In this document: positions 23,963 to 62,833 of the stretch, one piece after another
Position numbering within the stretch: the stretch's first letter is position 1
Layout: every line of letters begins with the position of its first letter
Assembly (NCBI GenBank): GCA_002255365.1
Contig: NCBI01000006.1
Coordinates: forward strand, 18,742 to 82,741
DNA length: 64,000 nt
Direction of reading: 5' to 3'
Origin: Chromatiales bacterium 21-64-14
GTDB taxonomy: Bacteria; Pseudomonadota; Gammaproteobacteria; 21-64-14
Made by a program: the position numbers and the translations under genes
The notes under the pieces: generated by a model
Seen by the model: only the letters and a program-made list of their open reading frames with translations
Databases searched by the model: none
Told to the model about the DNA's origin: nothing

Positions 23963-24099
23963 CGGGCGGTCTACCCGCCGCGCGACAGTCCGCGCTTCGC
24001 GCCGGTGTTTGTCACACGGGCGCGGCGGCGACCTCAGGACGGCGCCCATACCGGTGGCGAACCTCACCATCCCTCGGGCCCACTCATGAACCATGCGCG

Positions 24100-30182: not shown

Positions 30183-30908
30183 CTAGCGGCGGCGGCGCTG
30201 GAGCAGTCTGCGCTCGAGTTCGGCCACGAACCGTTCCAGGCACTTCTGCTGGGCGCGGGTCAGGTCGAGAAACCGCCCACCGATGCGCAGTTTGCCCCGT
30301 GCCTCGTCGAATCGCACATAGCACACCTCCAGCGCGCTGCGCAGCGGAGGGGCGTCCGGGAGTTGGACCACGCAGGCCGGGACGGTATCGCCCCGTTGCA
30401 GGGTGCCGCTGGCGAGATAGGCGCCGACTCCGCTCACCGACAGATCATGCAACGAGCCATCCAGGAGTTGCTCGGGGCCGAGGGCAAGCTGAACTGGGAT
30501 CACCAAGGACGCGCCGACTTCCACCCGGTAATGGGTGCGCCGCTGGCGATAGCGGACCAGGCCGGGTATGGCCAACTGATAGTAGGCGATGCCCGCGGCG
30601 CCGCCGATCTCCTGCACCGCCGCGGGAAAGCGGATCTCGATGCCGTGCAGCCGGCCGATGACCTGCAGCTTGCGCGCTTCCAACAGGCGCTCATGACCGC
30701 GGCGCGGGTTCAGTTCGTCCAGCAGCAGGTGGCCCAGATCGGGATCCACCTCTAGCAGGGCACTGCTGTAGAGGGATTGTTCGCCGGGGATCGAGACGGA
30801 GAGCAGGGCGTGACTGTCCATCAGGCCGCGGAGCAGGGCCACGATCCGGGTAGGGTCGGTAACGTTCTCTTCGGCCCCGAATGGGTCTTGCCGGGATTGG
30901 TTTTCCAT
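30183..30908 (-). CDS. flgZ: flagellar brake protein YcgR/FlgZ-like (PilZN + PilZ domains)
   Basis: YcgR-type N-terminus (IVALLRGLMDSHALLSV), C-terminal PilZ RxxxR-like region, and position downstream of flgMN as in Pseudomonas FlgZ; start ATG 30908. Confidence 0.7.
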   Translation of the reverse strand: MENQSRQDPFGAEENVTDPTRIVALLRGLMDSHALLSVSIPGEQSLYSSALLEVDPDLGHLLLDELNPRRGHERLLEARKLQVIGRLHGIEIRFPAAVQEIGGAAGIAYYQLAIPGLVRYRQRRTHYRVEVGASLVIPVQLALGPEQLLDGSLHDLSVSGVGAYLASGTLQRGDTVPACVVQLPDAPPLRSALEVCYVRFDEARGKLRIGGRFLDLTRAQQKCLERFVAELERRLLQRRRR

Positions 30909-31013
30909 GTGCTCAGGGGGTGTTTCCCCGCGCCGCACAAGGCGGCTCGGTCGCTGTGACTGGAGCATCGTGATGCGCCTCCCTGCGCCGGTTCATCGGG
31001 TGCCGCCGTCGGC

Positions 31014-31945: not shown

Positions 31946-32650
31946 TCACAGTGGGACCCGGACGACACCCGTGGCCACGACGGTGCCTTCCACCACGCGT
32001 TTGGAAGAGAGGTTGCGTACCTTGATATCCGCGCCGTTGGCGCCGTCCGCCAAGGCTGTGCCGGCCATGCGTACTTCCAAGCCGCCCACTCCTGCCACGA
32101 GGGTGACCTGTTGGCCACGGCGCACGAGGGGCGGAAACGCGAGGGTGTTGGGGGTGAGGGCGGCGCCTGCGGGGATGAGGCGGAGCGCCCGTTTACCCAA
32201 TGCGGTCTTGGGGTTTGTGAGGTATCCGTAGGCCAAGCCGTTCAGGTCGCGGCGCGCCAAGCGGAAGTCGTCGCTGGTCAGTGTGGTGCCCCGGGTGAGG
32301 GCACGTGCCGCTACCAGGACTTTTCCGTATAGGGCGACCTGCGCCGGCACATAGAGGGTCCAGGGGTGCGCTCCGGTGCAGCGGATGCCCACGGCCGTGT
32401 TCCCCAACGCCCTGCCGCCCGGCGGCAGGAAAGTCTGCAGCGCCACGGGACACTTGGGCAACCGCAGCCGCGGGTCGAGGGCGTCCACTTTCACTTGCAG
32501 CTCGCCCACGGTGGATCGGGCATGCTGGGCGCGCAGAAACCGGGCCGCGGCGTCCCGGATACTGGCGGTGGACTGCAGTTCCGCAGCCGGCACCGTCGGT
32601 GCGATGGCCAGTAAGGCGATTGAGAGTGCGACACCGGCGAATCGGATCAC
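31946..32650 (-). CDS. flgA: flagellar basal-body P-ring formation chaperone FlgA
   Basis: Signal peptide; SAF-like C-terminal domain (GQQVTLV...[16 protein letters not shown]). Confidence 0.75.
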
Positions 32651-34008
32651 GATGGGGTGTCCTCCGCGGGATTGGCCCGCAGCAGTTGGTGGATGCCACT
32701 GAACACGGTGTCCAGGGCGCTGTCCATCTCACCCATCTGCGCGCGCGCGGCGTCGAGGTTACCGGACGCCAGCCGACCTGCGATCTCCGCACCGCACTCG
32801 TGGAGTTGGCGGTGGGAGGCAACCAAGCCGCGGAATGCCGGATGCACGCCGTAACGCTGTTGGCCCCGATTGGCCAGCCACCGGCCCAGGCGGCATTCCT
32901 GATGGCCCTTGACGCCCTCTGGTGACACGGGCTCGTTTTTACGCAATGCCTCGTCCAGGGTGAGTTTCCACATCAGGTGTCCGCCCTTCACCCCGCACAA
33001 CAGGATCCGGTCGTCTTCAGAGTCGGCAAAGGCGTTGAGCTGGCGCGCGCCGGCCGCCGCGACGATCCGCGCGTGGTCAGCAAGCAAGCCGATCCGGCGG
33101 TTCTCTTCCTCCAGCTCGCTGGTGATCTCGCTCAGGGTGCGTGCCATGCTATGGGAGACCTGCTGCTGGTCGCCGGCGGCCACGGCGATCTGGTGGGCAC
33201 GCTCGGTAACGTCGTTCACCACCGCATGGATATCCGATAACGCTACCACCACGGTTTCCAGGGATTCGCCGCTGGTGGAGAGCCGCTGCAGGCCGGTTTG
33301 CACCGATGCCGTGGCGGTGCGCGACAACTCGTTCATGGTGGCCGTGACGGATTCGATTTCGGTAGTCGCCTGGGCGGTCTTGTCGGCGAGCTGCTTGACC
33401 TCGCCGGCGACTACTGCAAAGCCGCGGCCCGCTTCACCGGCCCGGGCTGCTTCGATAGCGGCGTTCAGGGCCAGGAGGTTGGTTTGGTGAGCGATGTCCT
33501 TGACGATGGCAGTGAGCTTGTCGATCTGCTGGGTGAACCCGGCCAACTGTTCCATGCTGTCGGCCATGGTGCGGACCGCCCCTTCCAGCAGGTCCAGTTC
33601 CCCCACCAGGGTGGAGGCGCAAACGTTGCCTTCCCGGACTTTGCCGCTGCCCTCACCGGCGCGCTCCGCCGTCTGGCCGGCGTGGGTGGAGATGGACTCC
33701 GCCGTCGCGGCCATCTCCTCTACCGCCGCGGCCACCCCGGTCACCTGATCCTTGAGGTCGGCGAGCCCATGATGAAAGGTCCCGGTTCCTTCCATGAGCC
33801 CGGTCGACTGTTCCATGAGTTCCATCCCCTCCCGCGCGATCCGGTAGAGCTTATCGTTCCAGTCCAGCAGGGCGGTGGTGACCGGCTCCAGAGCCGCACC
33901 GGTGGCGCGATGACGCTGTCGAGATTCGGCCACCCGTTGGCGGTCTGCGGCGAGCGCCGCGTTCAGCACTTCGAGGACATGCCGGGTGATGAGCAGGGCT
34001 TGCGTCAC
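32647..34008 (-). CDS. soluble methyl-accepting chemotaxis protein with C-terminal CZB (chemoreceptor zinc-binding) domain
   Basis: MCP signalling tip [34 protein letters not shown]; no TM segments; C-terminal CZB motif [11 protein letters not shown] with flanking His; 4-nt overlap with flgA. Confidence 0.75.
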
Positions 34009-36298: not shown

Positions 36299-36314
36299 TG
36301 GCACGGGCATTGCT
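36299..36314 (+). promoter_or_regulatory. sigma-54 promoter upstream of flgB (TGGCAC-N5-TTGCT)
   Basis: Exact -24/-12 consensus TTGGCACGGGCATTGCTT ~30 nt upstream of the flgB ATG. Confidence 0.6.
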
Positions 36315-46847: not shown

Positions 46848-46863
46848 TGGTACGAAGCTTGCA
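46848..46863 (+). promoter_or_regulatory. candidate sigma-54 promoter (TGGTAC-N5-TTGCA) upstream of the giant gene
   Basis: GG-N10-GC spacing correct; one mismatch to the -24 consensus; ~260 nt leader. Confidence 0.35.
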
Positions 46864-47122
46864 TCTTGCATTGAGTCTCATGCGAGCTGCTGCGTGGCTC
46901 GCCGTTCTCCTCGGCGAAGGGATGCGACCGTGACGGCAGAACACGGAAATACGAGCCCGGCCGGTCCGAATGCCTGCCGTATACCCGCACGTCAGCCAGC
47001 GCCGGTGCCCATGCGCCGCGTGGTCACCGAGTTGCGGCCAGATTGCGCCTGGCCTGGCCGGTGGTCGGAATCCCTTAGTGGCGCTCGCGCCTGTCTCGCG
47101 CCAAACACGTGGGTCCCAAACA

Positions 47123-50100
47123 ATGGATGCGGATGAATTGTTGATCGCTTGTGTGGCGGAAGACCGTCGTGATCACCACATCAAGGTCGCGAATCTGGTC
47201 GGTACGATCAGGTCTTTCGGCGGGAGTTTAGCGAGCGCTCGAATCGCGGTTAATTACGTCGAGTCTGTCGATTCCGGAATCCGCGCATCGCTCGAGGAAG
47301 CGGGTGCCGATGTGAGGGTCGTGCCGCGGTTTGATCCGCGCTGTCCGCATGCCAACAAGCTTCGTATGTTGGAACAGGTGGCAGGTGTGGGCCTGCTCGT
47401 CGCCATGGATGTCGATATGGCTGTGGTTAGGGACTTCCGCTCACAACTCCACACGGGTGGGATAAGCGCCAAGATCGTCGATCTTAATCCCTTGAGTGAG
47501 ACGCAGTGGCACCAGCTTTTTGACTACGCAGGGCTGCCGATGCCCGGGCAGCGATACGTATGTAGTTCCGATGGTGGCGTGGTCCCCCCGTATTTCAATA
47601 GTGGCCTGCTTACCATTCCAGTGCAGTGGATATCGTCCCTGCGCGCGAGCTGGGGTGCATACGTGGCATGGCTGCTCGACGCCAGAATGGACCTGCCTTG
47701 GCTTGAACAGCACGCGTTCTTTACCGACCAACTGGCACTCGCCCTCGCACTGCAGGCGATCCAGTGCCCGGTAATACCACTGCCGATTGAAATGAACTTC
47801 CCAACCCATATACCAGTGGCACCCAACTTCCATCCGGACGATGTAGAGCCATATATAGTTCACTACCATGACCGCGTGAATGCGGACGGAACCTTGGGTC
47901 TTACGGCTTACCGTGCACCCAATCTGGGGATCAAGCGGGTAAACGAATCGATTATAGGCAACATAACCCTCGGCGATGCCGGTACAGCATCGGACCGATT
48001 CAGTAATTCGGTGTTCTGGGAAAAACATTATCGAGACGCGCCTGATCTCGGTTCCGGGGTCGGATCGCGGGCGCAGTTTGCGCGGTATAAGAGCGTGATT
48101 ATTGACCAGCTCACGCAGGAAATGGGGCCTGCCAGTGTGTTGGATGTGGGTTGTGGTGATCTCGCATCAGTCGCGGGCCGACCATGGCCCGAATATACCG
48201 GAATTGACATAGCAGGATGCGTAATAGAGCGCAATCGAACGGCATTTCCGCATTGGAAGTTTCTCCCCGGCGATTTTCTGGAGTTATCTGAGAGTGCTGA
48301 CATCGACGCGGATTTGGTGCTGTGCTTTGACGTCCTGATCCATGAGCATGACCCAATCCGATATGAACAAATTGTTGGGAAATTGCTTCGATCGACAGGC
48401 CGCTGCCTGATGATCGGAGGGTACGACTCCCCCCCATTGCAACGGTACTCCAGTGGGATTAACGCGTTTCATGAACCGCTGTCGGATACCCTTCGCCGCT
48501 ACGGCGTGACTCGAATTGTACGGATTGGTGGCTACCGGGGGGTGACCATGCTGCGGGTAGACCTCGACGATGGGTTGGTCACTCCGCAGCGTAGGCGTAG
48601 TGAAAAAGACGACGATCGGGGGTTCGCGATATTGCGCAGCGGCACGCGGGATGACACGACGCCGGACCGGCCGCAGGAATCCAGTATTACCTCGGGCGTG
48701 GCGAAGGTTTCCTCAGCGCACATGAGTCCGGAACCGGTAGCTGAAGGTGAATCCCCTGAGGTTGGGGATATGCCACAAGCCATCCTCATTGTCGGGATGC
48801 ATCGCAGTGGAACGTCAGCGCTGGCGCGGGTGTTGAACCTGCACGGTGTCCGTCTCGGATCCCGGATGATCCCCCCTCAGGACGATAATGCGCGCGGGTT
48901 CTGGGAGCATCCCGCTGTCATGGCGCTAAATGAACGTGTGTTGGCGTATTTCGGAGGAGCATGGGATCGTCCTGGTCCACTGAGGAATGATGGCCAGAGT
49001 CTGGAGGAGTTCACGGCACTGTTGAACGATGCAGCGACATTAGTGGACGGCGAGTTCTCGGCTACGAAGCTTTGGGGCATCAAGGACCCGCGCTTGTGCC
49101 GTACGCTCCCGTTTTGGCACCGCGTGCTGGAGCGCGCGCGGACTGAGTCGCGGCACGTTCTTGTCATCCGTAACCCGCTGGAAATCGCTGCCTCCTTGGC
49201 GAAGCGAGATGGGTTCTCGCAGACGAGGTCACTTCTGCTCTGGTTCAGATATCTTTTGGACGCCGAGCACGACAGCCGTGGCACCAAGCGCGTCTTTATT
49301 ACCTACGAGCAATTACTCGGTGATTGGAGAAGCGCGATTCGGCATCTTGCCTCCGGTCTTGGAGTCGTCCTGGATCCGGAGACGGAAACCGTCGCGCGTC
49401 GCGTGGAGGCCTTCCTTTCTCCGCAGCTGCGGCATCACCACATGAGGCGACCGCCCACGGTCCAAGACCACGCCCGGTTGGGCCCGCTGGCCGCCGAGTT
49501 CTATGATGCCTTACTCGCAGCGTCACACGGTGATGAAAGTGGACTCGCTGACCTGGATCGGTTGCGGTCGGATATTGAACTTCTGGAGCAGGATTTTAAC
49601 CATAAGAATGCAGCTCCCGAATCCACATCGGGCGCAATACGGAGCATGGTAGAGCCGGAGGCAATCCTTCGCCAGTTGGGCCGGCCGTTACGCGTCGGGA
49701 TCCTTTCTACCGAGAGGAAGGAATGGGGGTGCGCGCACATTCGTCTAGTCAGCCCATTGGCATCTCTCCAGAAGCAGGTGGAGGTCATCTGGGCGGTCCC
49801 TGAAGCGGACGCAACCGCGAGGATCGATTTCGAGCTGCTCGATTCCGCCGATTTGTTTGTTGTCCAAAGGTTCTTCCCATCCGCGGTCAACATGGAGTTG
49901 ATCCGGCTGTTGTTGTCTTCGGGAAAGCCGGTGATCTACGAGGCCGACGACCTCGTAACGGCGATTCCGGAGGCTAACCCTGGGTACGCCGTGGCAGCGG
50001 CAATGCGGCCGTATATTCTGGAAACGGTGACGTCCGTGCATGCGCTGACGGTTTCGACGGAAGAGCTGCGGCGGGCTTTTGCGTCGTACAACAGCAATAT

Positions 50101-53100
50101 TTATATTTTGCCAAACCTGCTGGATGACCGTTTGTGGAATCGGGAGCCGGTCGACGGGAGCGCCGTAGTCGTGATCGGCTATGTCGGCACCTGGACCCAC
50201 CTGGATGACTTGGAAATCATCGAGCCGGCACTCGAAATCATTGCGAAAATATATGGTAGCCGCGTACGGTTCGAATTCGCTGGCTGCATCTCAGAGCGTC
50301 TGAGGGGGCTGCCCAATCTGACGGTGCGAGAGTTTCAGCCGGGCTACGCTGCTTATGCACAGACCCTGCAGGGCCTTGGCGTTGACATCGCGGTGGCGCC
50401 GCTTCGTGATACCGCGTTCAACCGGGTAAAGAGCAATATTAAATGGCTGGAATATTCCGCCTGCGGGATCGCGGGTGTCTACTCAGCAGTTCCGCCCTAT
50501 GTTGCGGACGTGGTGCATGGGGAAACGGGTTTGCTGGCAGGGGAGGATGTGGATGAATGGGTCAATGCGATCGCGAGTTTGGTGGAAAGCCGGGACCGGC
50601 GATTGGCGATCGCTGGTAAGGCGCGGGAACGGGTGTTGGCCGACTACACGGCGAGCCGTGGCGCCCGATCCTACCTTCAGGCCTATGTGGACGTGCTTGC
50701 TAACTTCCAAACCAGACCAAATCGCATGCCGCAGATATCGGCTGAGTACGAGCTTTGGCGGGAGCGCCGTTCCCACAGGGTAGCGACGAGGTTGGACGGG
50801 CTCCGCGATGCGCCCGCCATTCATCTCATCGTCTGCCTCCACGAGGGACAGGAGGCGGCGCTAGCCGATACCGTTGATACGCTCGCCGCGCAGACCTACG
50901 GTGGATGGGGCCTTAGTGTTGTCGCGGATTTTCCATGCCGACAGCCGGACTTCGAGGCGCTGCCGATGTGCGAATGGGTAGCGTCCGACGGCGAGTTCCA
51001 GGATACGGTAAATCAGCTTGTGGCCACTTCGCAGGCTGATTGGTTGGCGCAGATCGATGTCGGAGACCGCTTCGATGCGTCCTTGCTTGCCAGCTTGGCG
51101 CACTACTTGGCTCTGTTCGGCGATTGGCGGGTGGTTTATGTGGATGAAGATGTATGGTTGGCGGACGGGCGCCGTGTCGCCCCTAAATTCAAGCCGGATT
51201 TCAACTTAGATTTGCTTCGTTCTACACCCTATGTAGGCGCCCTCTGTTTCGTGCGCAGGGATGTGTTGGTCGCGATCGGAGGATTTTCGGGCGGGGATGG
51301 CCTAAGCCGAACGTATGATACCGTGCTGCGAGTGCTGGAACATTCGGGGGAAAAGTCGGTCGGTCATGTGCCAGATTTACTTTTCCACCGCAGTGGCGGC
51401 AATGCTGCCGCAGTGGATTTCGCCGCCTCACACGGTGTATGTCGAAGACATCTGGAAGCGCATCTGCAGCGTTGTGGCGTGCACGCGGTTGTTCATCAGG
51501 GTCGTGCCGAGGGTACCCAGTTTATCGAGTATCCAGTGGGCGAACACTGCCGCGTGTCTGTGGTGATCCCCACCGATGGACGTTTGCGGTTTCTTGAGCC
51601 ATGTATCCGGACGGTACTTTCCAACACGGAGTACCCGGACCTCGAAGTCGTCGTGGTGACCGGAACGGAACAGGATCCTAGCCTGGGCCAGTGCCTGTAC
51701 GAACTAATGGCTTGCGACAACCGGGTGCGTGTGGTTTCGAGCGGCGGAGAAAATGGGGTTACGGCGGCTCTGGACGCGGGGGTCCGGGAGGCGTCAGGAG
51801 AATATGTGCTGCTGTTGCACGACGACACATTGATAGTCCAGAAGGACTGGTTGAGCCGGATGGTATCCCTCGCCAAGCGCGACGACGTTGGTGTCGTAGG
51901 GGTAAGGCTGGTGTTCCCTGACCAGCGGATACAGAACTCGGGGATCATCCTGGGCGGCGGCCCCTGGGGCGTTGCGGAGTGCCGGGATGTTGGGAAAACG
52001 CTGACGGACCCAGGGTACCTGGGGCGTCTTGCCTGCGTCCAGGACCTTTCCGCGGTTAGCGGGGCTTGTCTGATGATCCGCGCTGAACTGTACCGACAGG
52101 TCATGGCGACCGAGATGGCGGCGGCGGGACATTTCTGGGATGTGGCCTTGTGTCTGCGAGTGGGTAGGTTGGGGTACAAGGTGGTGTGGACCCCGTACGT
52201 GACGGTGGTCCACCATCATACATCCGTGCGTGAGGCGTGTGATGCTGATCGGCACGGGATCGAGCGGGACGCGGCGCGGATGCGGGCACAGTGGCTGGGA
52301 CGACTTGCGAGTGACCCGGCCTATAACCGCAATCTTTCGCTCACGGGTGGGGGTTGGCGCCCGGATGTAAACCTTTTTTGTCCGTGGGATCCGGCACTCC
52401 GTGAGGACCACCGGATCGTCGGGGTCGGGGCCGGCTCCTACGGATCCTGGCGCTATCGCCTCGCGGATCCCCTGGCGGGCCTCGAGGGCGCAGGGCGTGC
52501 CCGCCCGATGGTCGTCGAGTATTACAGTGAGACAGCGCCCATGCCTACGGTGACGGAGCTCGCGCGGTTAGGGCCCGATACCCTCTTCATGCACAACGCT
52601 GTTCACGATTCGCAGATTGCCCTCATCAAGGAGTACAGGGAACTCCGCCAGGGATTCGTGGTGTTCGGGCAGGACGACCTGATGTTCGAGCTTCCCGGGA
52701 AAAATCCCTTCCAGAAAACCGTGTTCAAGGACATCAAGCGCCGGCTGCGGACCTGTATTGGTTTGGCGGACCGCTTGGTCGTGACGACGGAACCGTTGGC
52801 AGAGGCCTACCGGGAGTGGGCCCAGGATGTGCGGATCGTGCCGAACTATCTCGAACGCTCGGTCTGGGGCGCACTTCGGTCAGAACGCCGGACCGCGCGG
52901 CGACCCCGGGTTGGCTGGGCGGGGGCAATGCAGCACGGTGGGGATCTGGAGCTCCTGATCGAGGTAGTGAAAGAAACCGCGGGTGAATTGGATTGGGTGT
53001 TCTTTGGGATGTGTCTGGAGGAACTGCGGCCATTGGCGGCAGAACTGTGCCCGGCGGTGGCTTTTGACGACTATCCCAAGGTGCTGGCACGGCTGAACCT

Positions 53101-53446
53101 GGACTTGGCTGTCGCTCCTCTGGCGCGCAACCGTTTCAACGAGGCCAAGAGCAATCTACGGATCTTGGAGTACGGGGCGTTGGGGTGGCCGGTGGTGTGC
53201 AGCGATATCCAACCCTACCGGGATGCGCCGGTATGTCGCGTGCCTAACAACTCGCGGGCGTGGATCGAGGCGATCCGGGAGCGCGCCCACGACCTGGACG
53301 CGGCGGCGGTGGAGGGAGACCGGTTGCGGGACTGGGTCCTGAGGGATTGGATGCTTGAGGATCACCTGGAGCAATGGCTGGAGGCGCTGGTTTGTCCCGG
53401 GGCGGCGGTGGGCGGGGCGGACATTCAGGCACACGGAGGTGGCTGA
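47123..53446 (+). CDS. giant multidomain protein: DxD domain + class I SAM-methyltransferase + sulfotransferase + GT-B-like + two GT2 + second GT-B-like domain (candidate flagellin glycan synthesis/modification enzyme)
   Basis: Single 2158-codon ORF (46970..53446); likely start ATG 47123. VLDVGCGDL (MTase motif I) ~48.1 kb; GMHRSGTS (PAPS 5'-PSB) ~48.8 kb; GT2 DxD/VVIPT regions ~50.8-52.2 kb; repeated AVAPL..N..KSN...LEY.A.G motif at ~50.4 and ~53.1 kb. Lies between flgL and fliC where Pseudomonas carries its flagellin glycosylation island. Confidence 0.7.
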   Translation: MDADELLIACVAEDRRDHHIKVANLVGTIRSFGGSLASARIAVNYVESVDSGIRASLEEAGADVRVVPRFDPRCPHANKLRMLEQVAGVGLLVAMDVDMAVVRDFRSQLHTGGISAKIVDLNPLSETQWHQLFDYAGLPMPGQRYVCSSDGGVVPPYFNSGLLTIPVQWISSLRASWGAYVAWLLDARMDLPWLEQHAFFTDQLALALALQAIQCPVIPLPIEMNFPTHIPVAPNFHPDDVEPYIVHYHDRVNADGTLGLTAYRAPNLGIKRVNESIIGNITLGDAGTASDRFSNSVFWEKHYRDAPDLGSGVGSRAQFARYKSVIIDQLTQEMGPASVLDVGCGDLASVAGRPWPEYTGIDIAGCVIERNRTAFPHWKFLPGDFLELSESADIDADLVLCFDVLIHEHDPIRYEQIVGKLLRSTGRCLMIGGYDSPPLQRYSSGINAFHEPLSDTLRRYGVTRIVRIGGYRGVTMLRVDLDDGLVTPQRRRSEKDDDRGFAILRSGTRDDTTPDRPQESSITSGVAKVSSAHMSPEPVAEGESPEVGDMPQAILIVGMHRSGTSALARVLNLHGVRLGSRMIPPQDDNARGFWEHPAVMALNERVLAYFGGAWDRPGPLRNDGQSLEEFTALLNDAATLVDGEFSATKLWGIKDPRLCRTLPFWHRVLERARTESRHVLVIRNPLEIAASLAKRDGFSQTRSLLLWFRYLLDAEHDSRGTKRVFITYEQLLGDWRSAIRHLASGLGVVLDPETETVARRVEAFLSPQLRHHHMRRPPTVQDHARLGPLAAEFYDALLAASHGDESGLADLDRLRSDIELLEQDFNHKNAAPESTSGAIRSMVEPEAILRQLGRPLRVGILSTERKEWGCAHIRLVSPLASLQKQVEVIWAVPEADATARIDFELLDSADLFVVQRFFPSAVNMELIRLLLSSGKPVIYEADDLVTAIPEANPGYAVAAAMRPYILETVTSVHALTVSTEELRRAFASYNSNIYILPNLLDDRLWNREPVDGSAVVVIGYVGTWTHLDDLEIIEPALEIIAKIYGSRVRFEFAGCISERLRGLPNLTVREFQPGYAAYAQTLQGLGVDIAVAPLRDTAFNRVKSNIKWLEYSACGIAGVYSAVPPYVADVVHGETGLLAGEDVDEWVNAIASLVESRDRRLAIAGKARERVLADYTASRGARSYLQAYVDVLANFQTRPNRMPQISAEYELWRERRSHRVATRLDGLRDAPAIHLIVCLHEGQEAALADTVDTLAAQTYGGWGLSVVADFPCRQPDFEALPMCEWVASDGEFQDTVNQLVATSQADWLAQIDVGDRFDASLLASLAHYLALFGDWRVVYVDEDVWLADGRRVAPKFKPDFNLDLLRSTPYVGALCFVRRDVLVAIGGFSGGDGLSRTYDTVLRVLEHSGEKSVGHVPDLLFHRSGGNAAAVDFAASHGVCRRHLEAHLQRCGVHAVVHQGRAEGTQFIEYPVGEHCRVSVVIPTDGRLRFLEPCIRTVLSNTEYPDLEVVVVTGTEQDPSLGQCLYELMACDNRVRVVSSGGENGVTAALDAGVREASGEYVLLLHDDTLIVQKDWLSRMVSLAKRDDVGVVGVRLVFPDQRIQNSGIILGGGPWGVAECRDVGKTLTDPGYLGRLACVQDLSAVSGACLMIRAELYRQVMATEMAAAGHFWDVALCLRVGRLGYKVVWTPYVTVVHHHTSVREACDADRHGIERDAARMRAQWLGRLASDPAYNRNLSLTGGGWRPDVNLFCPWDPALREDHRIVGVGAGSYGSWRYRLADPLAGLEGAGRARPMVVEYYSETAPMPTVTELARLGPDTLFMHNAVHDSQIALIKEYRELRQGFVVFGQDDLMFELPGKNPFQKTVFKDIKRRLRTCIGLADRLVVTTEPLAEAYREWAQDVRIVPNYLERSVWGALRSERRTARRPRVGWAGAMQHGGDLELLIEVVKETAGELDWVFFGMCLEELRPLAAELCPAVAFDDYPKVLARLNLDLAVAPLARNRFNEAKSNLRILEYGALGWPVVCSDIQPYRDAPVCRVPNNSRAWIEAIRERAHDLDAAAVEGDRLRDWVLRDWMLEDHLEQWLEALVCPGAAVGGADIQAHGGG

Positions 53447-53520: not shown

Positions 53521-53547
53521 TCAAGTTTTGTCCGATGCGATCCGATA
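53521..53547 (+). promoter_or_regulatory. sigma-28 (FliA)-like promoter upstream of fliC
   Basis: TCAAGTTT-N13-CCGATAC resembles TAAAGTTT-N11-GCCGATAA. Confidence 0.4.
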
Positions 53548-53663: not shown

Positions 53664-54500
53664 ATGGCACTAGTCATCAACACCAACATGAATTCTCTGG
53701 TTGCACAGAACAACCTGAGCAAGTCCCAAGATGCCCTGTCTCAGGCCATCCAACGCCTCTCCTCTGGACTGCGGATCAACAGTGCCAAGGACGACGCAGC
53801 TGGATTCTTCACTTCCCAGCTGATGACGCAGGACATCAACGGCATGAATCAGGCGGTGCGCAACGCCAACGACGGCGTATCTCTGGCCCAGACCGCCGGG
53901 GGCGCGATGACCCAGATCAGCAGCGACCTGCAGCGTATCAACCAGCTCGCGGTGCAATCGGCCAACGGTACCGTCCAGAACCGTACCGGCCTCCAGGCCG
54001 AGGTGGATCAGTTGACCCAGGATATCTCGCAGATCGTTCAGACCACCAGCTTCACCGGCGTCAATATGCTGGCTGGGACCAGCGGCACCATCACCTTCCA
54101 GGTCGGAGCGCAGGGCAGTGCCTCCGATCAGATCTCGGTGACCGGGCTCAATCTCACCACGCTGAAGTCCTATGCCGCCGGGCTGACTGCCACCGGCACC
54201 GTCGATGTTAGCACCCAGGCGGCGGCCTCCGCGGCGATCGCCAACGTCCAGGCGGATATCCAGACCGTGGCGGCCGACAGTGCCACCTTCGGCGCGGTGG
54301 AGAACCGGTTCAGTGCGGTGATCAATAACCTGACGAATACGGCGCAGAACCTTACCGCGGCCCGTAGCCGTATCGTGGATGCGAACTTCGCGCAGGAAAC
54401 CGCGAATCTATCACGGGCCCAGATCCTGCAGCAGGCCGGTGTGGCGGTGCTCCAACAGGCCAACACGAGTCCCAATATCGCGTTGACGCTGTTACGGTAA
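53664..54500 (+). CDS. fliC: flagellin
   Basis: Conserved D0/D1 termini (MALVINTNMNSLVAQNNL...; C-term LSRAQILQQAGVAVLQQANTSPNIALTLLR); 278 aa with a short Ser/Thr-rich central segment. Confidence 0.9.
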   Translation: MALVINTNMNSLVAQNNLSKSQDALSQAIQRLSSGLRINSAKDDAAGFFTSQLMTQDINGMNQAVRNANDGVSLAQTAGGAMTQISSDLQRINQLAVQSANGTVQNRTGLQAEVDQLTQDISQIVQTTSFTGVNMLAGTSGTITFQVGAQGSASDQISVTGLNLTTLKSYAAGLTATGTVDVSTQAAASAAIANVQADIQTVAADSATFGAVENRFSAVINNLTNTAQNLTAARSRIVDANFAQETANLSRAQILQQAGVAVLQQANTSPNIALTLLR

Positions 54501-54515
54501 CGGTAGCATTGGACA

Positions 54516-54549
54516 GCGTACGGGGCAGGATGCCCCGTACGCCGTTTCT
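54516..54549 (+). terminator. Rho-independent terminator after fliC
   Basis: Perfect 12-bp stem GCGTACGGGGCA-gga-TGCCCCGTACGC followed by CGTTTCT. Confidence 0.65.
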
Positions 54550-54566: not shown

Positions 54567-54959
54567 ATGAGCGTCATGCCAATTGATCTGAACCCAAACC
54601 CCCCAGTGGGACCGGTCCAGGGACAGGGCGGGCCGCCGGTCGGTAGTGCCCCAGTACCCGCGGGCGCTGTCCTTCCAGGCACTTCGAATCCATTGCCAGT
54701 GGGTACACCAATAGGCGCGGGCGTGTCTCCCATATCGGAGGCCGCGGTTAACGCCGCGGTCCGTCAGTTGAACCAGAGTGTACAGGCCACCAGCAGCGAG
54801 CTGCAGTTCTCCGTCGATAAACAGACTGACCGTATCGTGGTCAAGGTGATTGATATGAAGACCAACCAGGTGATCCGGCAGATTCCATCGCAGGATATTC
54901 TGTCGTTGGACCACCGGATGCAACAACTGGCCGGCATCCTGTTGCGCGCGCGTGCCTAG
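54567..54959 (+). CDS. flaG: flagellar protein FlaG
   Basis: C-terminal LQFSVDKQTDRIVVKVIDMKTNQVIRQIP is the FlaG signature. Confidence 0.7.
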   Translation: MSVMPIDLNPNPPVGPVQGQGGPPVGSAPVPAGAVLPGTSNPLPVGTPIGAGVSPISEAAVNAAVRQLNQSVQATSSELQFSVDKQTDRIVVKVIDMKTNQVIRQIPSQDILSLDHRMQQLAGILLRARA

Positions 54960-55012: not shown

Positions 55013-56371
55013 ATGACGATTAGCAGCAGCAATCTTTCCCCCACCCTGAGCGCCCCCGGGATCGGGACGGGGCTCGACGTCTCCAGCATCGTCAGTCAGC
55101 TGATGGCGGTTGCGAGCCAACCCATGCAGGCGCTACAAGCGCAGCAGTCGGGCATCCAGGCTGAAGTGAGCGGCCTCGGACAGTTGTCGAGTTCGCTGTC
55201 CACGTTTCAGACTGCGCTCCAAGGGCTTACCCTGGACCAATTTCAGGCCCATACCGCGACCTCGGCGGATACCACCAAGTTTACTGCCAGCGCCGATGGG
55301 ACCGCGGTCGTCGGATCTTACCAAATTGGGGTCACCAGCCTGGCGCAGGCGCAGCAGATGGCCTCCGCGGCGTTTGCGGATTCCACGACCACGACGGTCG
55401 GGAATCCCGGCGACACCATGACGATCCAGGTCGGCAGCAGCAGCTCCAACGCATTCACGGTAGCGATCGGCGGGCAGACCCTTACCGGTATCGCCGACGC
55501 TATCAACAACGCTACAAACAACACGGGTGCTACCGCCTCGATACTCCACACGGACGCGGGTTACCAGCTCGTGCTCTCGTCGAATCAGACGGGGACAGCC
55601 AACGCCTTGACGCTGTCGTTCGCGAACAGCAGTGGCACCGCGATCACGGACCCCCTCTCTCTGGCTACGACCCAGGCGGCCGCGGACGCGGTGATTCAGG
55701 TCAATGGACAACAGGCTACCCGGTCCTCTAATACGATCTCCGATGTGATCCAGGGGGTCACGCTGAATCTGGTCGGGACCAGTGCCACCGGCGTCACTAC
55801 CGCGCTGACGGTGGGCCAGGACCCCACGACGGTTACCAAGTCCATTCAGAGTTTCGTGGACGCCTACAACGCGCTCCAAACATCGCTCGGGTCTTTGCAG
55901 ACCGGGAGCCTTTCCGGAGATGGAACCGTTTCCATGGTCAAGTCCCAGTTGCTCGGGGTCATCAACACCCCGGCGACCGGCGTGAGCAACACCTACTCGT
56001 ATCTCGCGGAAATCGGCGTGTCGATCCAGAAGGACGGCACGATGGGGATCGACACCACCCAGTTGAACACCGCCCTCAGCACCGATCCGCAGGGCGTGGC
56101 CCGGGTGTTCGCGGACAGTACCCAGGGGTTTGCGACGCGCCTGGCTGCGCTGGCCGGCCAATTGACCGGGCCCAACGGTATGGTGGCGAGCCAGACCCAG
56201 GGTCTGAATAGCAGCATCAGCATGCTCCAGGATCAGATCGACAATCAGCAGCAGATGCTGAATGCTCAGCAGACAGCGCTAATGGCTCAATATTCGTCGC
56301 TGGATGCGCTGCTCGGTACGATGCAGACTACTAGTAGTTTTCTGAGCCAGCAGCTATCTACGTTGCGATGA
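55013..56371 (+). CDS. fliD: flagellar filament capping protein FliD
   Basis: Conserved FliD N-terminus (GIGTGLDVSSIVSQLMAVASQP) and C-terminus. Confidence 0.85.
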   Translation: MTISSSNLSPTLSAPGIGTGLDVSSIVSQLMAVASQPMQALQAQQSGIQAEVSGLGQLSSSLSTFQTALQGLTLDQFQAHTATSADTTKFTASADGTAVVGSYQIGVTSLAQAQQMASAAFADSTTTTVGNPGDTMTIQVGSSSSNAFTVAIGGQTLTGIADAINNATNNTGATASILHTDAGYQLVLSSNQTGTANALTLSFANSSGTAITDPLSLATTQAAADAVIQVNGQQATRSSNTISDVIQGVTLNLVGTSATGVTTALTVGQDPTTVTKSIQSFVDAYNALQTSLGSLQTGSLSGDGTVSMVKSQLLGVINTPATGVSNTYSYLAEIGVSIQKDGTMGIDTTQLNTALSTDPQGVARVFADSTQGFATRLAALAGQLTGPNGMVASQTQGLNSSISMLQDQIDNQQQMLNAQQTALMAQYSSLDALLGTMQTTSSFLSQQLSTLR

Positions 56372-56477
56372 AGACCACGGGCGGTTTTCTGACACAGCAG
56401 CTAGCGGCGCTGCCCGGGCTATGTATGGTGCTTGGCAGTAGTGGTGCGGGAGTAATCCGGCCGGTGGACATGATAGA

Positions 56478-56500
56478 GATCGACATCGACATCGACATCG
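56478..56500. repeat. hexanucleotide microsatellite (ATCGAC/GACATC)x3.5
   Basis: gatcgacatcgacatcgacatcg read directly. Confidence 0.8.
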
Positions 56501-56553: not shown

Positions 56554-57021
56554 ATGGGCTACAAGAACCTGCACGGCGCTCTCAAGCAGTATAGCCAGAC
56601 CGCGATGGAATCGGGGATCGAGAGTGCCAGCCCGCACCGGTTGGTACAGATGCTCATGGAGGGCGCGCTGGATAAGATTGCTTCCGCGAAAGGATCCATG
56701 GCACGCCGTGCCTTCGAGGCCAAGGGGCATCAGATCAACTGGGCCATCTCCATCATCAACGGGCTACGCATGAGTCTCGACAAGGACGGCGGGGGTGAAT
56801 TGGTGGAGAACCTGGATAGCCTGTATGACTATATGGTCCGTCGGCTGATGTCGGCCCATGTGGAAAACAATCCCGCGATGCTGGATGAAGTGGCCTCCCT
56901 GCTGCGTGAGATCAAGTCGGCGTGGGATGCAATCCCCGACGAGATCAAGAATGCGCCGCGTGCGGCGCCGGAGACGATCGAGCGTGAGGCCGCAAAGCCG
57001 GCCGCGGCGACGGGGCGCTAA
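56554..57021 (+). CDS. fliS: flagellar export chaperone FliS
   Basis: FliS four-helix family (YSQTAMESGIESASPHRLVQMLMEGAL). Confidence 0.85.
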   Translation: MGYKNLHGALKQYSQTAMESGIESASPHRLVQMLMEGALDKIASAKGSMARRAFEAKGHQINWAISIINGLRMSLDKDGGGELVENLDSLYDYMVRRLMSAHVENNPAMLDEVASLLREIKSAWDAIPDEIKNAPRAAPETIEREAAKPAAATGR

Positions 57022-57023
57022 AC

Positions 57024-57359
57024 GTGAACCAAGCACCTGAGTTGGCAACCCCGGAAGCCGACGCCTTGGGTGACATCCTGTCCTTGTCCCGTGCGATGGT
57101 GGCAGCGGCCGAACAAGGGGACTGGGAGGCGGTTACGGCCCAGGAGCAGGACCGGCGCGGGCGGATCAAACGCTACTTTTCCCAAGCCCCGGTCGTGGCC
57201 GCGTCGGCCGGACTGACCGAGGCAGTCCATACCCTTGTGGCCCTGGATCAGCGGGTGATCGAACTGGGCAAGGCGCGTCGCAATCAGATCGTGGATACAC
57301 TCCGCGGCTTGGGTCAGGGCAGCCGCGCGGTTCGAGCCTATCGGCAGGCCGGGCGTTGA
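57024..57359 (+). CDS. fliT: FliT-like flagellar chaperone/regulator
   Basis: Small helical protein with FliT-like LSLSRAMVAAAEQGDWEAV pattern; position after fliS as in Pseudomonas. Confidence 0.5.
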   Translation: MNQAPELATPEADALGDILSLSRAMVAAAEQGDWEAVTAQEQDRRGRIKRYFSQAPVVAASAGLTEAVHTLVALDQRVIELGKARRNQIVDTLRGLGQGSRAVRAYRQAGR

Positions 57360-57405: not shown

Positions 57406-57984
57406 ATGGCTCCCTCATCGTCCCAGGACCCCTTCTTCGAAGGGCTGAGCTACCAGGACTTCCTGCCCCTGGCGTGGCGGCCCATGCCGACCACATTGAC
57501 GGCGGCGGAATCGGTACGCCTCAACCGGGACAACGAGACGGTGTTGCGGGTGGCGGCTGCCCTGGACGATTTCCGGCCCGATACCAGCGATGAGTCGGGG
57601 GTGGGCTCTGAGCTCGGCCACCTGGATTTCAAACTGAACGTGTTGCTGGATCTGGTCGGCCACTTGGTCACCCGGGACCAGCCGCTGCCGGCGCAGACGC
57701 CGATCCGGCTGAGTGCCCGTGGCCTGGAGTGGACCGCATCTGAATTGCCTGCCGCGGCAGCGCCGGTGGTGGTGAGTCTCCACCTGCAGCCTTCCTATCC
57801 CAGGCCACTGGAACTGCCGGCACGGGTGGTCTTCGTGGCGACGGCCCCCGACGGGGGCCGTCGGGTCCAGGTGCTCTTCGAGGGTCTCAGCGAGGCGGTG
57901 GCGGATGGGCTGGAACGCCTGATTTTCCGCAACCACCGCCGTCAGATCGCCCAGAGCCGGTCCGCCCCCCGCGCCGACGACTGA
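57406..57984 (+). CDS. hypothetical protein in the flagellar regulon (possible atypical PilZ-like fold)
   Basis: 192-aa ORF between fliT and fleQ with no counterpart in the Pseudomonas aeruginosa order; HLDFKLNVLLDLVGHL...beta-rich C-term loosely PilZ-like; no canonical RxxxR/DxSxGG. Confidence 0.4.
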   Translation: MAPSSSQDPFFEGLSYQDFLPLAWRPMPTTLTAAESVRLNRDNETVLRVAAALDDFRPDTSDESGVGSELGHLDFKLNVLLDLVGHLVTRDQPLPAQTPIRLSARGLEWTASELPAAAAPVVVSLHLQPSYPRPLELPARVVFVATAPDGGRRVQVLFEGLSEAVADGLERLIFRNHRRQIAQSRSAPRADD

Positions 57985-58038: not shown

Positions 58039-58067
58039 TTGACATCCACCCCCCTTCGTGCTTATGT
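58039..58067 (+). promoter_or_regulatory. sigma-70 promoter upstream of fleQ (TTGACA-N17-TTATGT)
   Basis: Consensus -35 hexamer, 17-nt spacer, near-consensus -10. Confidence 0.5.
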
Positions 58068-58197
58068 TATTGGGTCATGAGGGCGGCCCCGGTGGGGGCG
58101 GCACCCGGAAAACAATAACAATCTCTACAATAGAATGGCGCAGGGCAGGAGGGACCCACGGGCCCCGACTGGCCCCCGCCGACAGGGTATCCCAGAC

Positions 58198-59640
<1,443 letters not shown>

Positions 59641-59709: not shown

Positions 59710-59772
59710 GTCTTGTGACGGCAGGGGCCGGTTTGTTTGGCAGGTCCCTTGAGGCCGCCATCAGGAGCCGCA

Positions 59773-61014
59773 ATGAGTCACGAGGCGACACGCCGCGCGC
59801 AACAACTCACCGACGCGTTCTACACCTTCAACGAGATGTCGCTTCAATTGGCGGCATCTTATCGGGAGCTGGAGACCCGCGTGGCGGAACTGAGCCAGGA
59901 GTTGGCGGCGGCGCGTTCCGAACGGCTCCAACAGCTGGCGGAAAAGGAACGCCTTGCGGATCGCTTGGCCCGGCTGTTGGAGGCCCTGCCTGGCGCGGTG
60001 ATCGTGCTCGACGGGAGTGGCCGGGTCCAGGAGTGCAACCCGGCGGCCCGGGAGTTGCTGGAAACCCCGCTCGTGGGAGAGCCGTGGCCGGAGCTTGCGC
60101 GGCGCACTTTCGTTCCCCAACCCGGCAGCGGCCATGAACTGCGTCTGCGGGACGGGCGCCAAGTGACCGTCTCGGTTCGGCCCCTGGCAGCGGAGCCCGG
60201 ACAGATCCTGTTGCTGCAAGATGTTACCGAGCACCGCGCACTGGAGGAACAACTCAGCCGCCACCAGCGCCTCTCGGCCATGGGGGAGATGGCCGCCAGT
60301 CTCGCCCATCAGATCCGAACGCCGCTGGCCTCGGCGCTGCTGTATGCGTCCAACCTCGCGCGCGGTGCCGCGCTGGGCGAAGCCGAACGGGGGCGCTTTG
60401 CGGAACGGATCGTCGCGCGTCTCAAGCACCTTGAGCGTATGGTCAACGACATGTTGCAGTTTGCCCGCGGCGGCCACTTCGGGATCGAGGAGATCTCCGT
60501 GGATGGACTGTTAGCGGCCGTGCAGCAGCACCTGGAGCCCCAGTTGCAGGCCGCCGGTGCGCGCCTGGCGCTGGAGAATGCCACCCGCTGCGCCTGTCTT
60601 CACGGTAGCCGTGACGCCCTTATCGGTGCCCTCCATAATCTGGCCACCAACGCCCTGCAGGCCACACCCCACCAGGCCCGGCTGCGGCTGGTTGTCCGCC
60701 AGGAGTCGTCCGGTTATCTGATATTTGAATTCTCCGACAACGGCCCCGGCATCCCGGAGGAGATCCGCGAGCGCATCTTCGAGCCGTTCTTCACGACCCG
60801 GTCCGACGGCACCGGTCTCGGGCTGGCGGTGGTGCACGCGGTGGTGCGTGCCCACCATGGCGATCTATCGGTGGTCACGACGCCCGGTCAGGGTGCCACC
60901 TTCCTGATCCGGCTTCCCATGGCCGAGGCTGCGTTGCCAGCGGCACTCTCGGAGACCAGCGTCGCTACACCCGCGGATAGCGAGCGCCCGGCCCTTTCCA
61001 GATCCACGGTGTGA
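59773..61014 (+). CDS. fleS: two-component sensor histidine kinase FleS
   Basis: PAS-like region; HisKA H-box (MAASLAHQIRTPLA); HATPase N/G1/G2 boxes (DNGPGIP, GTGLGLA). Confidence 0.8.
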   Translation: MSHEATRRAQQLTDAFYTFNEMSLQLAASYRELETRVAELSQELAAARSERLQQLAEKERLADRLARLLEALPGAVIVLDGSGRVQECNPAARELLETPLVGEPWPELARRTFVPQPGSGHELRLRDGRQVTVSVRPLAAEPGQILLLQDVTEHRALEEQLSRHQRLSAMGEMAASLAHQIRTPLASALLYASNLARGAALGEAERGRFAERIVARLKHLERMVNDMLQFARGGHFGIEEISVDGLLAAVQQHLEPQLQAAGARLALENATRCACLHGSRDALIGALHNLATNALQATPHQARLRLVVRQESSGYLIFEFSDNGPGIPEEIRERIFEPFFTTRSDGTGLGLAVVHAVVRAHHGDLSVVTTPGQGATFLIRLPMAEAALPAALSETSVATPADSERPALSRSTV

Positions 61015-61027
61015 GGAGGTTTCTTCC

Positions 61028-62407
61028 ATGAGTCAATCCGCGGTACTGGTGGTGGAAGACGATCACAGCTTGCGCGAAGCCCTGTGCGATACGCTGCAGT
61101 TGGCGGGTTACCCGGTGCTGGCTGCGCAGGACGGTGCGGGCGCCCTGGATGTGATCGAGCAGCAGGCTGTCGTTATGGTGGTGAGCGATGTGCAGATGCG
61201 GCCCATGGACGGGCACACCCTGTTGCGGAAGATCCGCGCCCTGCATGCGAATCTCCCGGTGGTGCTCATGACCGCCTATGGAACAATCGAGAAGGCCGTG
61301 GCCGCGATGCGCGATGGCGCCACCGACTACCTGGTCAAGCCCTTCGAGGCGGACCTGCTGGTGGAGCTGGTGAGCCGCTACCTTCCCGCGGTCCACGAGG
61401 ACATCGGCTTGGTGGCTGAAGATCCGGCCAGCCAGCGTATCCTGGATCTGGCGCAACGGGTGGCGTCGAGCGAAGTCACGGTAATGATCAGCGGGGAGAG
61501 CGGGACCGGAAAGGAGGTCTTCGCACGCTATATCCATCGCCATTCGGCCCGCGCTGGCGGCCCGTTCGTGGCCATCAACTGCGCCGCCATTCCGGAGAAC
61601 ATGCTGGAGGCGGTGCTGTTCGGCCATGAGAAGGGCGCGTTCACCGGGGCCTACCAGGCCCATGCCGGGAAGTTCGAGCAGGCCCAGGGCGGCACCCTGT
61701 TACTGGACGAGATATCGGAGATGGATCTGAGCCTGCAGGCTAAGCTGCTGCGGGTGATCCAGGAGCGGGAGGTGGAGCGGCTGGGAGGTCGGAAGGTGAT
61801 CCCCCTGGACGTGCGGGTGCTGGCAACCTCGAACCGGAATCTGCGGCAAGAGGTGACCGCCGGCCGGTTCCGGGAGGACCTCTTTTACCGCCTGAACGTA
61901 TTTCCTCTCAATCTACCGCCTTTGCGCGAACGGCCCGCGGATATCCTGCCCCTCGCCCGGCGCGCGGTGGAGCGCTACGGGCGCGACCGGTGTCCACTGC
62001 CGGATCTGTCCGCCGCCGCCGCCGAACGCCTGCTGGCCCATTGCTGGCCGGGTAACGTGCGCGAGCTGGAAAACCTCCTGCAACGATCACTGATTCTAGC
62101 CGCGGCGGGCACTATCGGCGCGGAGCACCTGCAGTTCGAGACCGCGTCCCCGGTGATTCAGAGTCCTGGGGGAGGGCAGGCGGCCCCGGCTGGGGATCCG
62201 GCGATTGCCGGCCCGCCCAGCCTTGGGGAGGATCTGCGGGTACGCGAGCAACGCCTGATTCTGGACGCCCTGCGCGAGGGTCGAGGTAGCCGCAAGCGGG
62301 CCGCTGAGGCCCTTGGGATCAGTCCGCGGACCCTGCGGTACAAGCTCGCCCGCCTGCGCGATGCGGGAGTCGAAATTCCGGCGCTGTTTGGCGCGGAACA
62401 TGCATAG
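61028..62407 (+). CDS. fleR: sigma-54-dependent response regulator FleR
   Basis: Receiver domain (VVEDD...SDVQMRPMDG), AAA+ sigma-54 activator with GAFTGA, C-terminal Fis-type HTH. Confidence 0.85.
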   Translation: MSQSAVLVVEDDHSLREALCDTLQLAGYPVLAAQDGAGALDVIEQQAVVMVVSDVQMRPMDGHTLLRKIRALHANLPVVLMTAYGTIEKAVAAMRDGATDYLVKPFEADLLVELVSRYLPAVHEDIGLVAEDPASQRILDLAQRVASSEVTVMISGESGTGKEVFARYIHRHSARAGGPFVAINCAAIPENMLEAVLFGHEKGAFTGAYQAHAGKFEQAQGGTLLLDEISEMDLSLQAKLLRVIQEREVERLGGRKVIPLDVRVLATSNRNLRQEVTAGRFREDLFYRLNVFPLNLPPLRERPADILPLARRAVERYGRDRCPLPDLSAAAAERLLAHCWPGNVRELENLLQRSLILAAAGTIGAEHLQFETASPVIQSPGGGQAAPAGDPAIAGPPSLGEDLRVREQRLILDALREGRGSRKRAAEALGISPRTLRYKLARLRDAGVEIPALFGAEHA

Positions 62408-62506: not shown

Positions 62507-62833
62507 ATGAGCGAAGTCGACGTCAGCCAGTTGTTGGCGCAGATGCGGGCCATGACCGCGCGGGCCGAGTATGCCGTGGGCCCGGCGCCGGCGTCAGGCA
62601 ATCCCAAGCAGGTGAATTTCGCCCACCTGCTCAAGGACTCCATCAACAAGGTCAACGATACGCAACAGCAGGCGGCCAGCTTGGCCAAGTCCTTTGAACT
62701 TGGTCAGGGCCAGGTGGATCTGTCGGAGGTTATGGTGGCCCTGCAGAAGGCTAATGTGTCCTTCGAGGCCATGACTCAGGTGCGGAACAAGCTGGTCTCG
62801 GCGTACCAGGACATTATGAATATGTCGATCTGA
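62507..62833 (+). CDS. fliE: flagellar hook-basal body protein FliE
   Basis: FliE family (FAHLLKDSINKVNDTQQQA...VMVALQKANVSFEAMTQVRNKLVSAYQDIM). Confidence 0.8.
   Translation: MSEVDVSQLLAQMRAMTARAEYAVGPAPASGNPKQVNFAHLLKDSINKVNDTQQQAASLAKSFELGQGQVDLSEVMVALQKANVSFEAMTQVRNKLVSAYQDIMNMSI

Follow-up and report, generated by a model that had tools for sequence, protein, structure and literature searches.

A stand-alone tPilZ protein encoded between fliT and fleQ in a Chromatiales bacterium is a probable cyclic di-GMP-blind flagellar adaptor

The flagellar gene cluster of Chromatiales bacterium 21-64-14 raises the question of what is encoded by the 192-aa open reading frame (ORF) that lies between fliT and fleQ. 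The DNA analysed here, referred to as the window, comprises 64,000 nt of contig NCBI01000006.1 (positions 18,742 to 82,741 of the forward strand, assembly GCA_002255365.1). An initial annotation made from the sequence alone had proposed the gene order fliC-flaG-fliD-fliS-fliT-X-fleQ-fleS-fleR-fliE-fliF, X being the ORF in question, and this order is borne out by Pfam (Table 1). X itself had been regarded as an uncharacterised extra gene, inserted locally. We find that X encodes a protein of tPilZ, a family already described and represented by a crystal structure, and that its position is widespread among gammaproteobacteria. The protein has probably lost the ability to respond to cyclic di-GMP (c-di-GMP) and probably acts as a tetrameric adaptor through protein contacts.

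X is a real gene. The ORF opens at the first start codon downstream of the preceding stop, and its GC content at the three codon positions (0.73/0.49/0.82) resembles that of the adjacent flagellar genes. Its product is identical over the full length (100%) to the NCBI entry 'hypothetical protein B7Z66_05315 [Chromatiales bacterium 21-64-14]'. With a profile made from the protein and 25 relatives, 1363 cluster representatives were detected at E ≤ 1e-3, 506 of them at E ≤ 1e-30, in a set of 1.84 billion representatives; lengths are 167-208 aa throughout the best 150 of the 1363 listed. As a chance ORF would not have 1363 relatives of similar size, the 192-aa frame at 57406-57984 stands as first annotated, and the possibility of a spurious ORF could be ruled out. 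The overlapping antisense ORFs (e.g. 57415-57936, minus strand) are high-GC artefacts.

Pfam places the protein in PF16823 (tPilZ, 'atypical PilZ domain'): it scores 85.7 bits, the cut-off being 25 (E = 4.1e-24), and aligns with profile positions 1-135 of 136. The canonical PilZ profile of Pfam gave a weak match (E = 1e-4), and the NCBIfam scan of the ORF returned no family. Among solved structures the sole significant match, nearly full length, was XCC6012 from Xanthomonas campestris (3PH1/3RQA), with E-values of 5e-13 from the single sequence and 3.9e-23 from the profile. The AlphaFold2 model of the protein (mean predicted local distance difference test, pLDDT, 85; predicted template modelling score 0.77) was compared with the PDB by Foldseek, where the XCC6012 chains rank first (E 7.5e-11, template modelling score 0.68-0.74), followed by the PilZ domains of MotI, YcgR, MapZ and Alg44; all matches of the fold are PilZ proteins. 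The initial annotation had noted a loose likeness to a non-canonical PilZ fold and had suggested structure prediction as a check. Both Pfam and Foldseek turn this likeness into an identification, and the predicted fold is nearest to XCC6012.

tPilZ proteins are distinguished by a two-helix insert of about 60 aa (α2 and α3) between β1 and β2. The model contains this insert, and it also contains the barrel (strands at residues 16-26, 97-102, 106-111, 120-125, 135-146 and 152-158) and the long C-terminal helix (residues 163-186). Helix α3 has a pLDDT of 54-71 in the monomer model, the least among the helices, as is expected for a helix which packs only within the oligomer. The stand-alone, one-domain form of 192 aa is confirmed. 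The window protein is thus a stand-alone tPilZ of PF16823, with every testable sequence and fold characteristic of this family.

XCC6012 belongs to a Xanthomonas group which includes XC_2249 (X. campestris, identical to XCC6012), XAC1971, XOO2585 and PXO_06169 ('FlgZ' of X. oryzae). The window protein shares with XCC6012 the PF16823 domain, a length of 188-192 aa, the topology β1/α2/α3/β2 to β6/α4, the tetramer lock described below (DFKLN versus DAKLD in XCC6012), the FRxHRRQIA helix, the loss of the RxxxR motif and the gene position 3' of fliS/fliT and 5' of fleQ. However, the two proteins are only about 26-28% identical (structural alignment). The published xanthomonad order is fliC, fliD, fliS, an unknown gene, the pilZ gene, a LuxR-type regulator, rpoN, a response regulator and fleQ. 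In xanthomonads, fleQ is separated from the pilZ gene by two response regulators with rpoN2 between them, whereas in the window fleQ follows directly and fleS and fleR are present. By position, the window gene is the orthologue of XCC6012/XC_2249 and PXO_06169. There is a collision of names here: 'FlgZ' of X. oryzae is a tPilZ and not a brake of the YcgR/FlgZ family. PXO_02715/PilZX3, a Filp-interacting protein, is an X. oryzae entry distinct from PXO_06169, the gene of the fliS operon, and so does not count as evidence for the gene studied here. For 'PilZX4', nothing was found in the literature.

We examined the functional motifs in 81 syntenic orthologues and in 151 representatives (the best listed, retrieved without any peptide pattern). 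The generalised tetramer-interlocking motif of tPilZ proteins, [DENH]x[KR]h[DEN], occurs in all 81 orthologues and in 142 of the 151 representatives listed, and K76 of the lock is invariant in the alignment. The a and d heptad positions of α3 are L70, L73, L77, L80, V84 and L87; five of the six are hydrophobic in 80-81 of the 81 orthologues, and position 84 is V or T. The other strongly preserved part is α4, with the consensus LE(K/R)LIFRxHRRxxA, equivalent to FRLHRRQIA in XCC6012. F174, H177 and R178 are invariant in the alignment, FRxHRR predominates among the unbiased representatives listed, and the median net charge of the α4 stretch is +4 across the orthologues (for the retrieval of these loci, see below). 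Since α4 matters for function in FlgX of Campylobacter jejuni and in other PilZ proteins, its FRNHRR core is presumed to be the partner-binding surface.

The motifs for c-di-GMP show the opposite pattern. There is no arginine in the 15 residues preceding β1 of the window protein, so that RxxxR is missing; this motif was found before β1 in 0/81 orthologues and in two of the 151 representatives listed. The second motif, [D/N]hSxxG, is degenerate in the window (RLSARG, with Arg replacing D/N) and complete in none of either set. Judged from these motifs, the protein has lost the residues needed for canonical c-di-GMP binding. It could be argued that the protein is still a c-di-GMP effector, either by a non-canonical site (e.g. 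the arginine-rich α4) or by way of a partner that binds c-di-GMP, in the manner of type II PilZ proteins with FimX/Filp. The fold belongs to the PilZ superfamily, the hSxxG part is kept in the window as in 30/81 orthologues (and 18/151 representatives listed), degenerate PilZ proteins are known to work via FimX-like receptors, and some tPilZ proteins do bind c-di-GMP. We nevertheless regard such an effector as improbable: besides the near-complete absence of both motifs, XCC6012, which carries the same RLHRR pattern in α4, was reported not to bind c-di-GMP, and FlgX also acts without binding it. The c-di-GMP effector envisaged in the initial annotation is therefore unlikely in the direct sense, with RxxxR absent, [D/N]hSxxG degenerate and XCC6012 non-binding.

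Other tPilZ proteins differ from the window protein in motifs and sequence cluster. PA2989 of Pseudomonas aeruginosa, for which a dissociation constant of 188 nM to 2.9 µM and motility-related phenotypes were reported, PlzB/VC1885 of Vibrio cholerae and Lpg1926 of Legionella pneumophila share the two-helix insert and are stand-alone, single-copy proteins. Unlike the window protein, PA2989 and Lpg1926 keep RxxxR, and proteins of the PA2989/PlzB/Lpg1926 type fall apart from the XCC6012 group in sequence clusters (cluster 2 versus cluster 11). PA2989 sits elsewhere in the Pseudomonas genome, and the literature on PA2989, PlzB and Lpg1926 does not report a location in the fliS-fleQ interval. Our profile search of a word-indexed protein database did not reach tPilZ proteins of the PA2989 or PlzB type.

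The motor brakes YcgR, FlgZ and MotI, which act on the flagellar motor, have the PilZ β-barrel and a C-terminal helix in common with the window protein. In contrast, they are two-domain PilZN-PilZ proteins with intact c-di-GMP motifs, are non-tetrameric and inhibit motility. No Pfam match to PilZN was found in the tPilZ ORF. We rejected a YcgR-like brake role for it; the true YcgR/FlgZ-type gene is the PilZN+PilZ gene on the minus strand of the window (Table 1), where a nearby FlgZ had been correctly anticipated. This protein keeps both motifs, RxxxR (RRTHYR) and DLSVSG, so that a candidate c-di-GMP brake is already encoded by another gene.

The position of the tPilZ gene was compared in 80 genome loci, screened by tblastn with the window's own flagellar proteins as queries (within 1.5 kb, same strand). 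The loci stem from Steroidobacteraceae, Acidiferrobacterales, Halieaceae (Congregibacter, Halioglobus), Chromatiales and many unclassified gammaproteobacterial metagenome-assembled genomes (MAGs). Where 72 loci could be assessed for each neighbour, 68 have fliS upstream and 68 a fleQ-type gene downstream; both neighbours are present in 58 of 66 assessable loci. Median distances are about 365 nt from fliS to the tPilZ gene, a length that would accommodate a fliT, and about 216 nt from the tPilZ gene to fleQ. The arrangement has persisted in several gammaproteobacterial orders while the proteins diverged to 32-64% identity, and Dyella japonica has fliC-fliD-fliS-fliT-tPilZ-fleQ-fliE-fliF-fliG. 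A tPilZ gene between fliS/(fliT) and fleQ is thus the rule in many gammaproteobacteria, and the local insertion assumed at first has to be discarded. In P. aeruginosa PAO1 there is presumably nothing at this position (PA1092-PA1101).

Departures from the order occur on both sides. In a Competibacteraceae MAG, a mazE/pemK (mazEF) toxin-antitoxin pair lies between fliT and the tPilZ gene (L083, 6409-6995). In three related MAGs, a three-gene cassette on the opposite strand separates the tPilZ gene from fleQ (L004 3031-7426, L006 7050-10655, L008 6659-11056); by eye, two of its products resemble a PLP (pyridoxal phosphate)-dependent decarboxylase and an ATP-grasp enzyme. In one locus (L010), the fleQ-type gene is not beside the tPilZ gene. 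A further gammaproteobacterial MAG carries a YcgR-like PilZ gene (RSSYR, DNISPEG) on the opposite strand at the usual place of fliS/fliT (L035, 4617-5354, minus strand).

The synteny bears on whether the protein has to do with the flagellum at all. The gene order might be an inherited accident, with the actual function in virulence or enzyme secretion: knockout of XC_2249/XCC6012 lowers virulence and extracellular enzyme production, and PA2989 and PlzB were not reported from flagellar clusters. We consider this very unlikely, as the order has been held at the degree of divergence given above, transcription in X. oryzae is tied to the flagellar hierarchy, and the XC_2249 knockout is also impaired in motility.

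The genes fliS, fliT and tPilZ are most likely one transcription unit, with fliS as the first and tPilZ as the last gene. All three are on the same strand, with spacers of 2 nt (fliS-fliT) and 46 nt (fliT-tPilZ). No terminator-like site or significant hairpin was detected in the 46-nt spacer or just 3' of the tPilZ gene, and RNA folds of both regions are no stabler than those of shuffled sequences, which gives no evidence for a terminator or attenuator. In X. oryzae, fliS, fliTX and the atypical PilZ gene PXO_06169 ('flgZ') were found by reverse transcription PCR to form one operon, the expression of which requires RpoN2, FleQ and FliA. A σ70-like site in the tPilZ-fleQ spacer (10/12 matches in a consensus scan) is the sole match in 4.9 kb, with about 1.3 expected by chance; it is suggestive of an own promoter for fleQ, but not more than suggestive.

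The σ54 consensus scan revealed a perfect site, TGGCACGGGCATTGCT, at 36299-36314 just 5' of flgB, and weaker sites 5' of the giant ORF at 46970 (46848-46863, one mismatch), of fleS and of fliE. With up to two mismatches allowed, neither fliS nor the tPilZ gene is preceded by such a site, and overall the scan gave fewer sites than chance would produce. The fliD-fliS spacer contains a GG-N10-GC element, TGGCAGTAGTGGTGC (56433-56447), a possible σ54 promoter for fliS-fliT-tPilZ which is too weak to call, and a (CGACAT)x3 microrepeat at about 56478-56500.

Probable co-transcription with two chaperone genes, and the small size and cytoplasmic nature of the protein, could point to a late flagellar factor for export or assembly, a chaperone perhaps, that serves filament or cap proteins alongside FliS and FliT. 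We rejected this reading as highly improbable. The protein has no Pfam or NCBIfam match to FliS, FliT, FlgN or other chaperones, its PilZ β-barrel is unlike the helical-bundle chaperones, and no PilZ protein is known to have an export-chaperone role. Of the 'flagellar regulator or chaperone' proposed initially, the regulator or adaptor part remains plausible in the context of a flagellar operon, while the chaperone part falls for want of similarity to FliS/FliT.

Taken together, we consider it probable that the window tPilZ is a c-di-GMP-blind tetrameric adaptor, produced from the fliS-fliT-tPilZ unit and acting by protein contacts. Its gene would be transcribed last in this unit under the flagellar hierarchy and the protein would hence be made together with late flagellar proteins. 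Four α3 helices would build a stable homotetramer by means of their hydrophobic heptads and the DFKLN salt-bridge lock, and the tetramer would contact a flagellar component through the basic FRxHRR C-terminal helix. The comparisons above directly show the family, the fold, the state of the motifs and the conserved synteny; from them we infer that the protein tetramerises, is co-transcribed with fliS and fliT and promotes motility.

As to the component contacted, the motor or stator is our tentative first choice, by analogy with FlgX of C. jejuni, the one tPilZ whose mechanism has been worked out, which attaches to MotA on its cytoplasmic side. FlgX is a c-di-GMP-independent tetramer which stabilises the stator ring and is needed for motility; its function depends on residues of the C-terminal helix. 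In common with FlgX, the window protein has the predicted tPilZ fold, has lost the c-di-GMP motifs and carries a charged C-terminal helix. It is conceivable, though rather doubtful, that the tPilZ of the fliS-fleQ interval is the gammaproteobacterial counterpart of FlgX, a permanent c-di-GMP-independent tetrameric scaffold which would dock by its FRxHRR helix on the cytoplasmic side of the stator (MotA/PomA) or on FliG.

FleQ or FleN is the second choice, possible but less likely than the motor, on account of the persistent adjacency of the tPilZ gene and fleQ. The tetramer might then be a partner of FleQ (anti-activator, co-factor or feedback sensor) which is made late from the fliS operon, binds FleQ/FleN and tunes class II transcription, in the way that FliT feeds back on FlhDC in Salmonella; we think this unlikely. 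fleQ is immediately downstream in 68 of 72 loci, and the pleiotropic phenotype of XC_2249, affecting motility, virulence and enzymes, is more in keeping with a regulator than with a structural component. Against this reading stand the three other genes between tPilZ and fleQ in xanthomonads, the cassettes and the missing neighbour described above, and the apparent promoter of fleQ itself. In a variant of the FlgX-counterpart reading, tPilZ could equally well report the state of assembly back to FleQ.

Several points weigh against the adaptor reading as a whole. The stator analogy is weak, because FlgX is about 6% identical to XCC6012, lacks the [DENH]x[KR]h[DEN] lock and occurs in another context: it is found only in Campylobacterota, which have complex motors, within ubiA-flgX-flgW, whereas the neighbours in our gammaproteobacterium are fliT and fleQ. 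In Ectothiorhodospira mobilis (L082, 7001-9064), the tPilZ gene and fleQ form a pair only 43 nt apart, and the genes upstream of it are unrelated ones instead of fliC/fliD/fliS/fliT, so that linkage to fleQ can outlast linkage to fliS; three other loci (L021, L035, L046) likewise retain the pair without fliS/fliT. A FleQ-directed role fits this survival equally well. Helix α4 of the window protein itself contains an RxxxR pattern (R175-R179), which makes non-canonical nucleotide binding conceivable, although the equivalent pattern in XCC6012 goes with the lack of binding mentioned above. The 80 loci overstate how conserved residues 169-177 are, as they were retrieved by a peptide pattern over exactly this stretch (derived from a 10-sequence alignment); the representative set, for which no pattern was used, corrects for this bias. 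Finally, experimental work on this clade is confined to its Xanthomonas members.

Table 1. Coordinates of the tPilZ gene, its structural elements and other features of the window.
Feature	Position	Strand	Basis
tPilZ gene (X)	57406-57984	+	192-aa ORF; Pfam, PDB, AlphaFold2/Foldseek matches
β1 of PilZ barrel, residues 16-26	57451-57483	+	AlphaFold2 secondary structure
Two-helix insert between β1 and β2, α2 (33-55) and α3 (67-89)	57502-57672	+	AlphaFold2
Tetramer lock DFKLN, residues 74-78	57625-57639	+	Aligned with DAKLD 75-79 of XCC6012 (3PH1)
β2 to β6 of barrel, residues 97-158	57694-57879	+	AlphaFold2, Foldseek
RLSARG, residues 101-106, degenerate [D/N]hSxxG	57706-57723	+	Sequence
α4, amphipathic basic C-terminal helix, residues 163-186	57892-57963	+	AlphaFold2
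FRNHRR core of α4	57925-57942	+	Top-conserved element of subfamily
σ70-like promoter TTGACA-18-TATGTT, tPilZ-fleQ spacer	58039-58068	+	Consensus scan, 10/12 matches
Flagellin (fliC)	53664-54500		Pfam
flaG	54567-54959		Pfam
fliD	55013-56371		Pfam
fliS	56554-57021	+	Pfam FliS 5e-38
fliT	57024-57359	+	Pfam FliT 5.6e-11
fleQ	58198-59640 (ORF opening 58135)	+	FleQ N-domain, σ54 AAA+ domain, helix-turn-helix (Pfam)
PAS-HisKA kinase (fleS)	59737-61014		Pfam
REC-σ54 activator (fleR)	61028-62407		Pfam
fliE	62507-62833		Pfam
fliF	from 62897		Pfam
YcgR/FlgZ-type protein (PilZN+PilZ)	30186-30968	-	Pfam; intact RxxxR (RRTHYR) and DLSVSG

The start of fleQ is likely at 58198, as judged from the starts of its homologues. 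Upstream of fliC, a σ28-like site (TCAAG-N15-TCCGATA) is located at 53521-53547, and a strong hairpin follows the gene at about 54517-54543. Directly 5' of fliC, a single ORF of 2158 aa (46970-53446, plus strand) combines GT2 and GT1/GT4 glycosyltransferase, SAM (S-adenosylmethionine)-methyltransferase and sulfotransferase domains; it is a candidate for a giant flagellin-modification enzyme. The gene for a methyl-accepting chemotaxis protein with a C-terminal CZB (zinc-binding) domain (32650-34008, minus strand) adjoins flgA (31949-32650). Further away, a CHASE2-domain Ser/Thr protein kinase is encoded at 17877-20405 (minus strand), and beside it lies an ORF of 778 aa which has no Pfam match (21857-24190, minus strand).

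No new type of system has come to light with the window tPilZ; what the analysis adds is modest, namely how widely the gene order and the loss of the motifs extend. A protein annotated as 'hypothetical' can now be assigned to the well-defined tPilZ family. The 80 genomes, together with the loci from Ectothiorhodospira, Rhodanobacteraceae and Competibacteraceae, place this tPilZ subfamily between fliS/fliT and fleQ, with the c-di-GMP motifs nearly always lost and the tetramer lock and the FRxHRR helix retained. Whether tPilZ proteins and the flagellar motor are also connected outside Campylobacterota is a question that was raised in the FlgX study. The linkage to the fliS-fleQ interval is circumstantial support for a general connection between tPilZ proteins and the flagellum. 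If the protein were indeed a counterpart of FlgX, the partnership of tPilZ and motor would be an ancestral and widespread trait, not one special to Campylobacterota.

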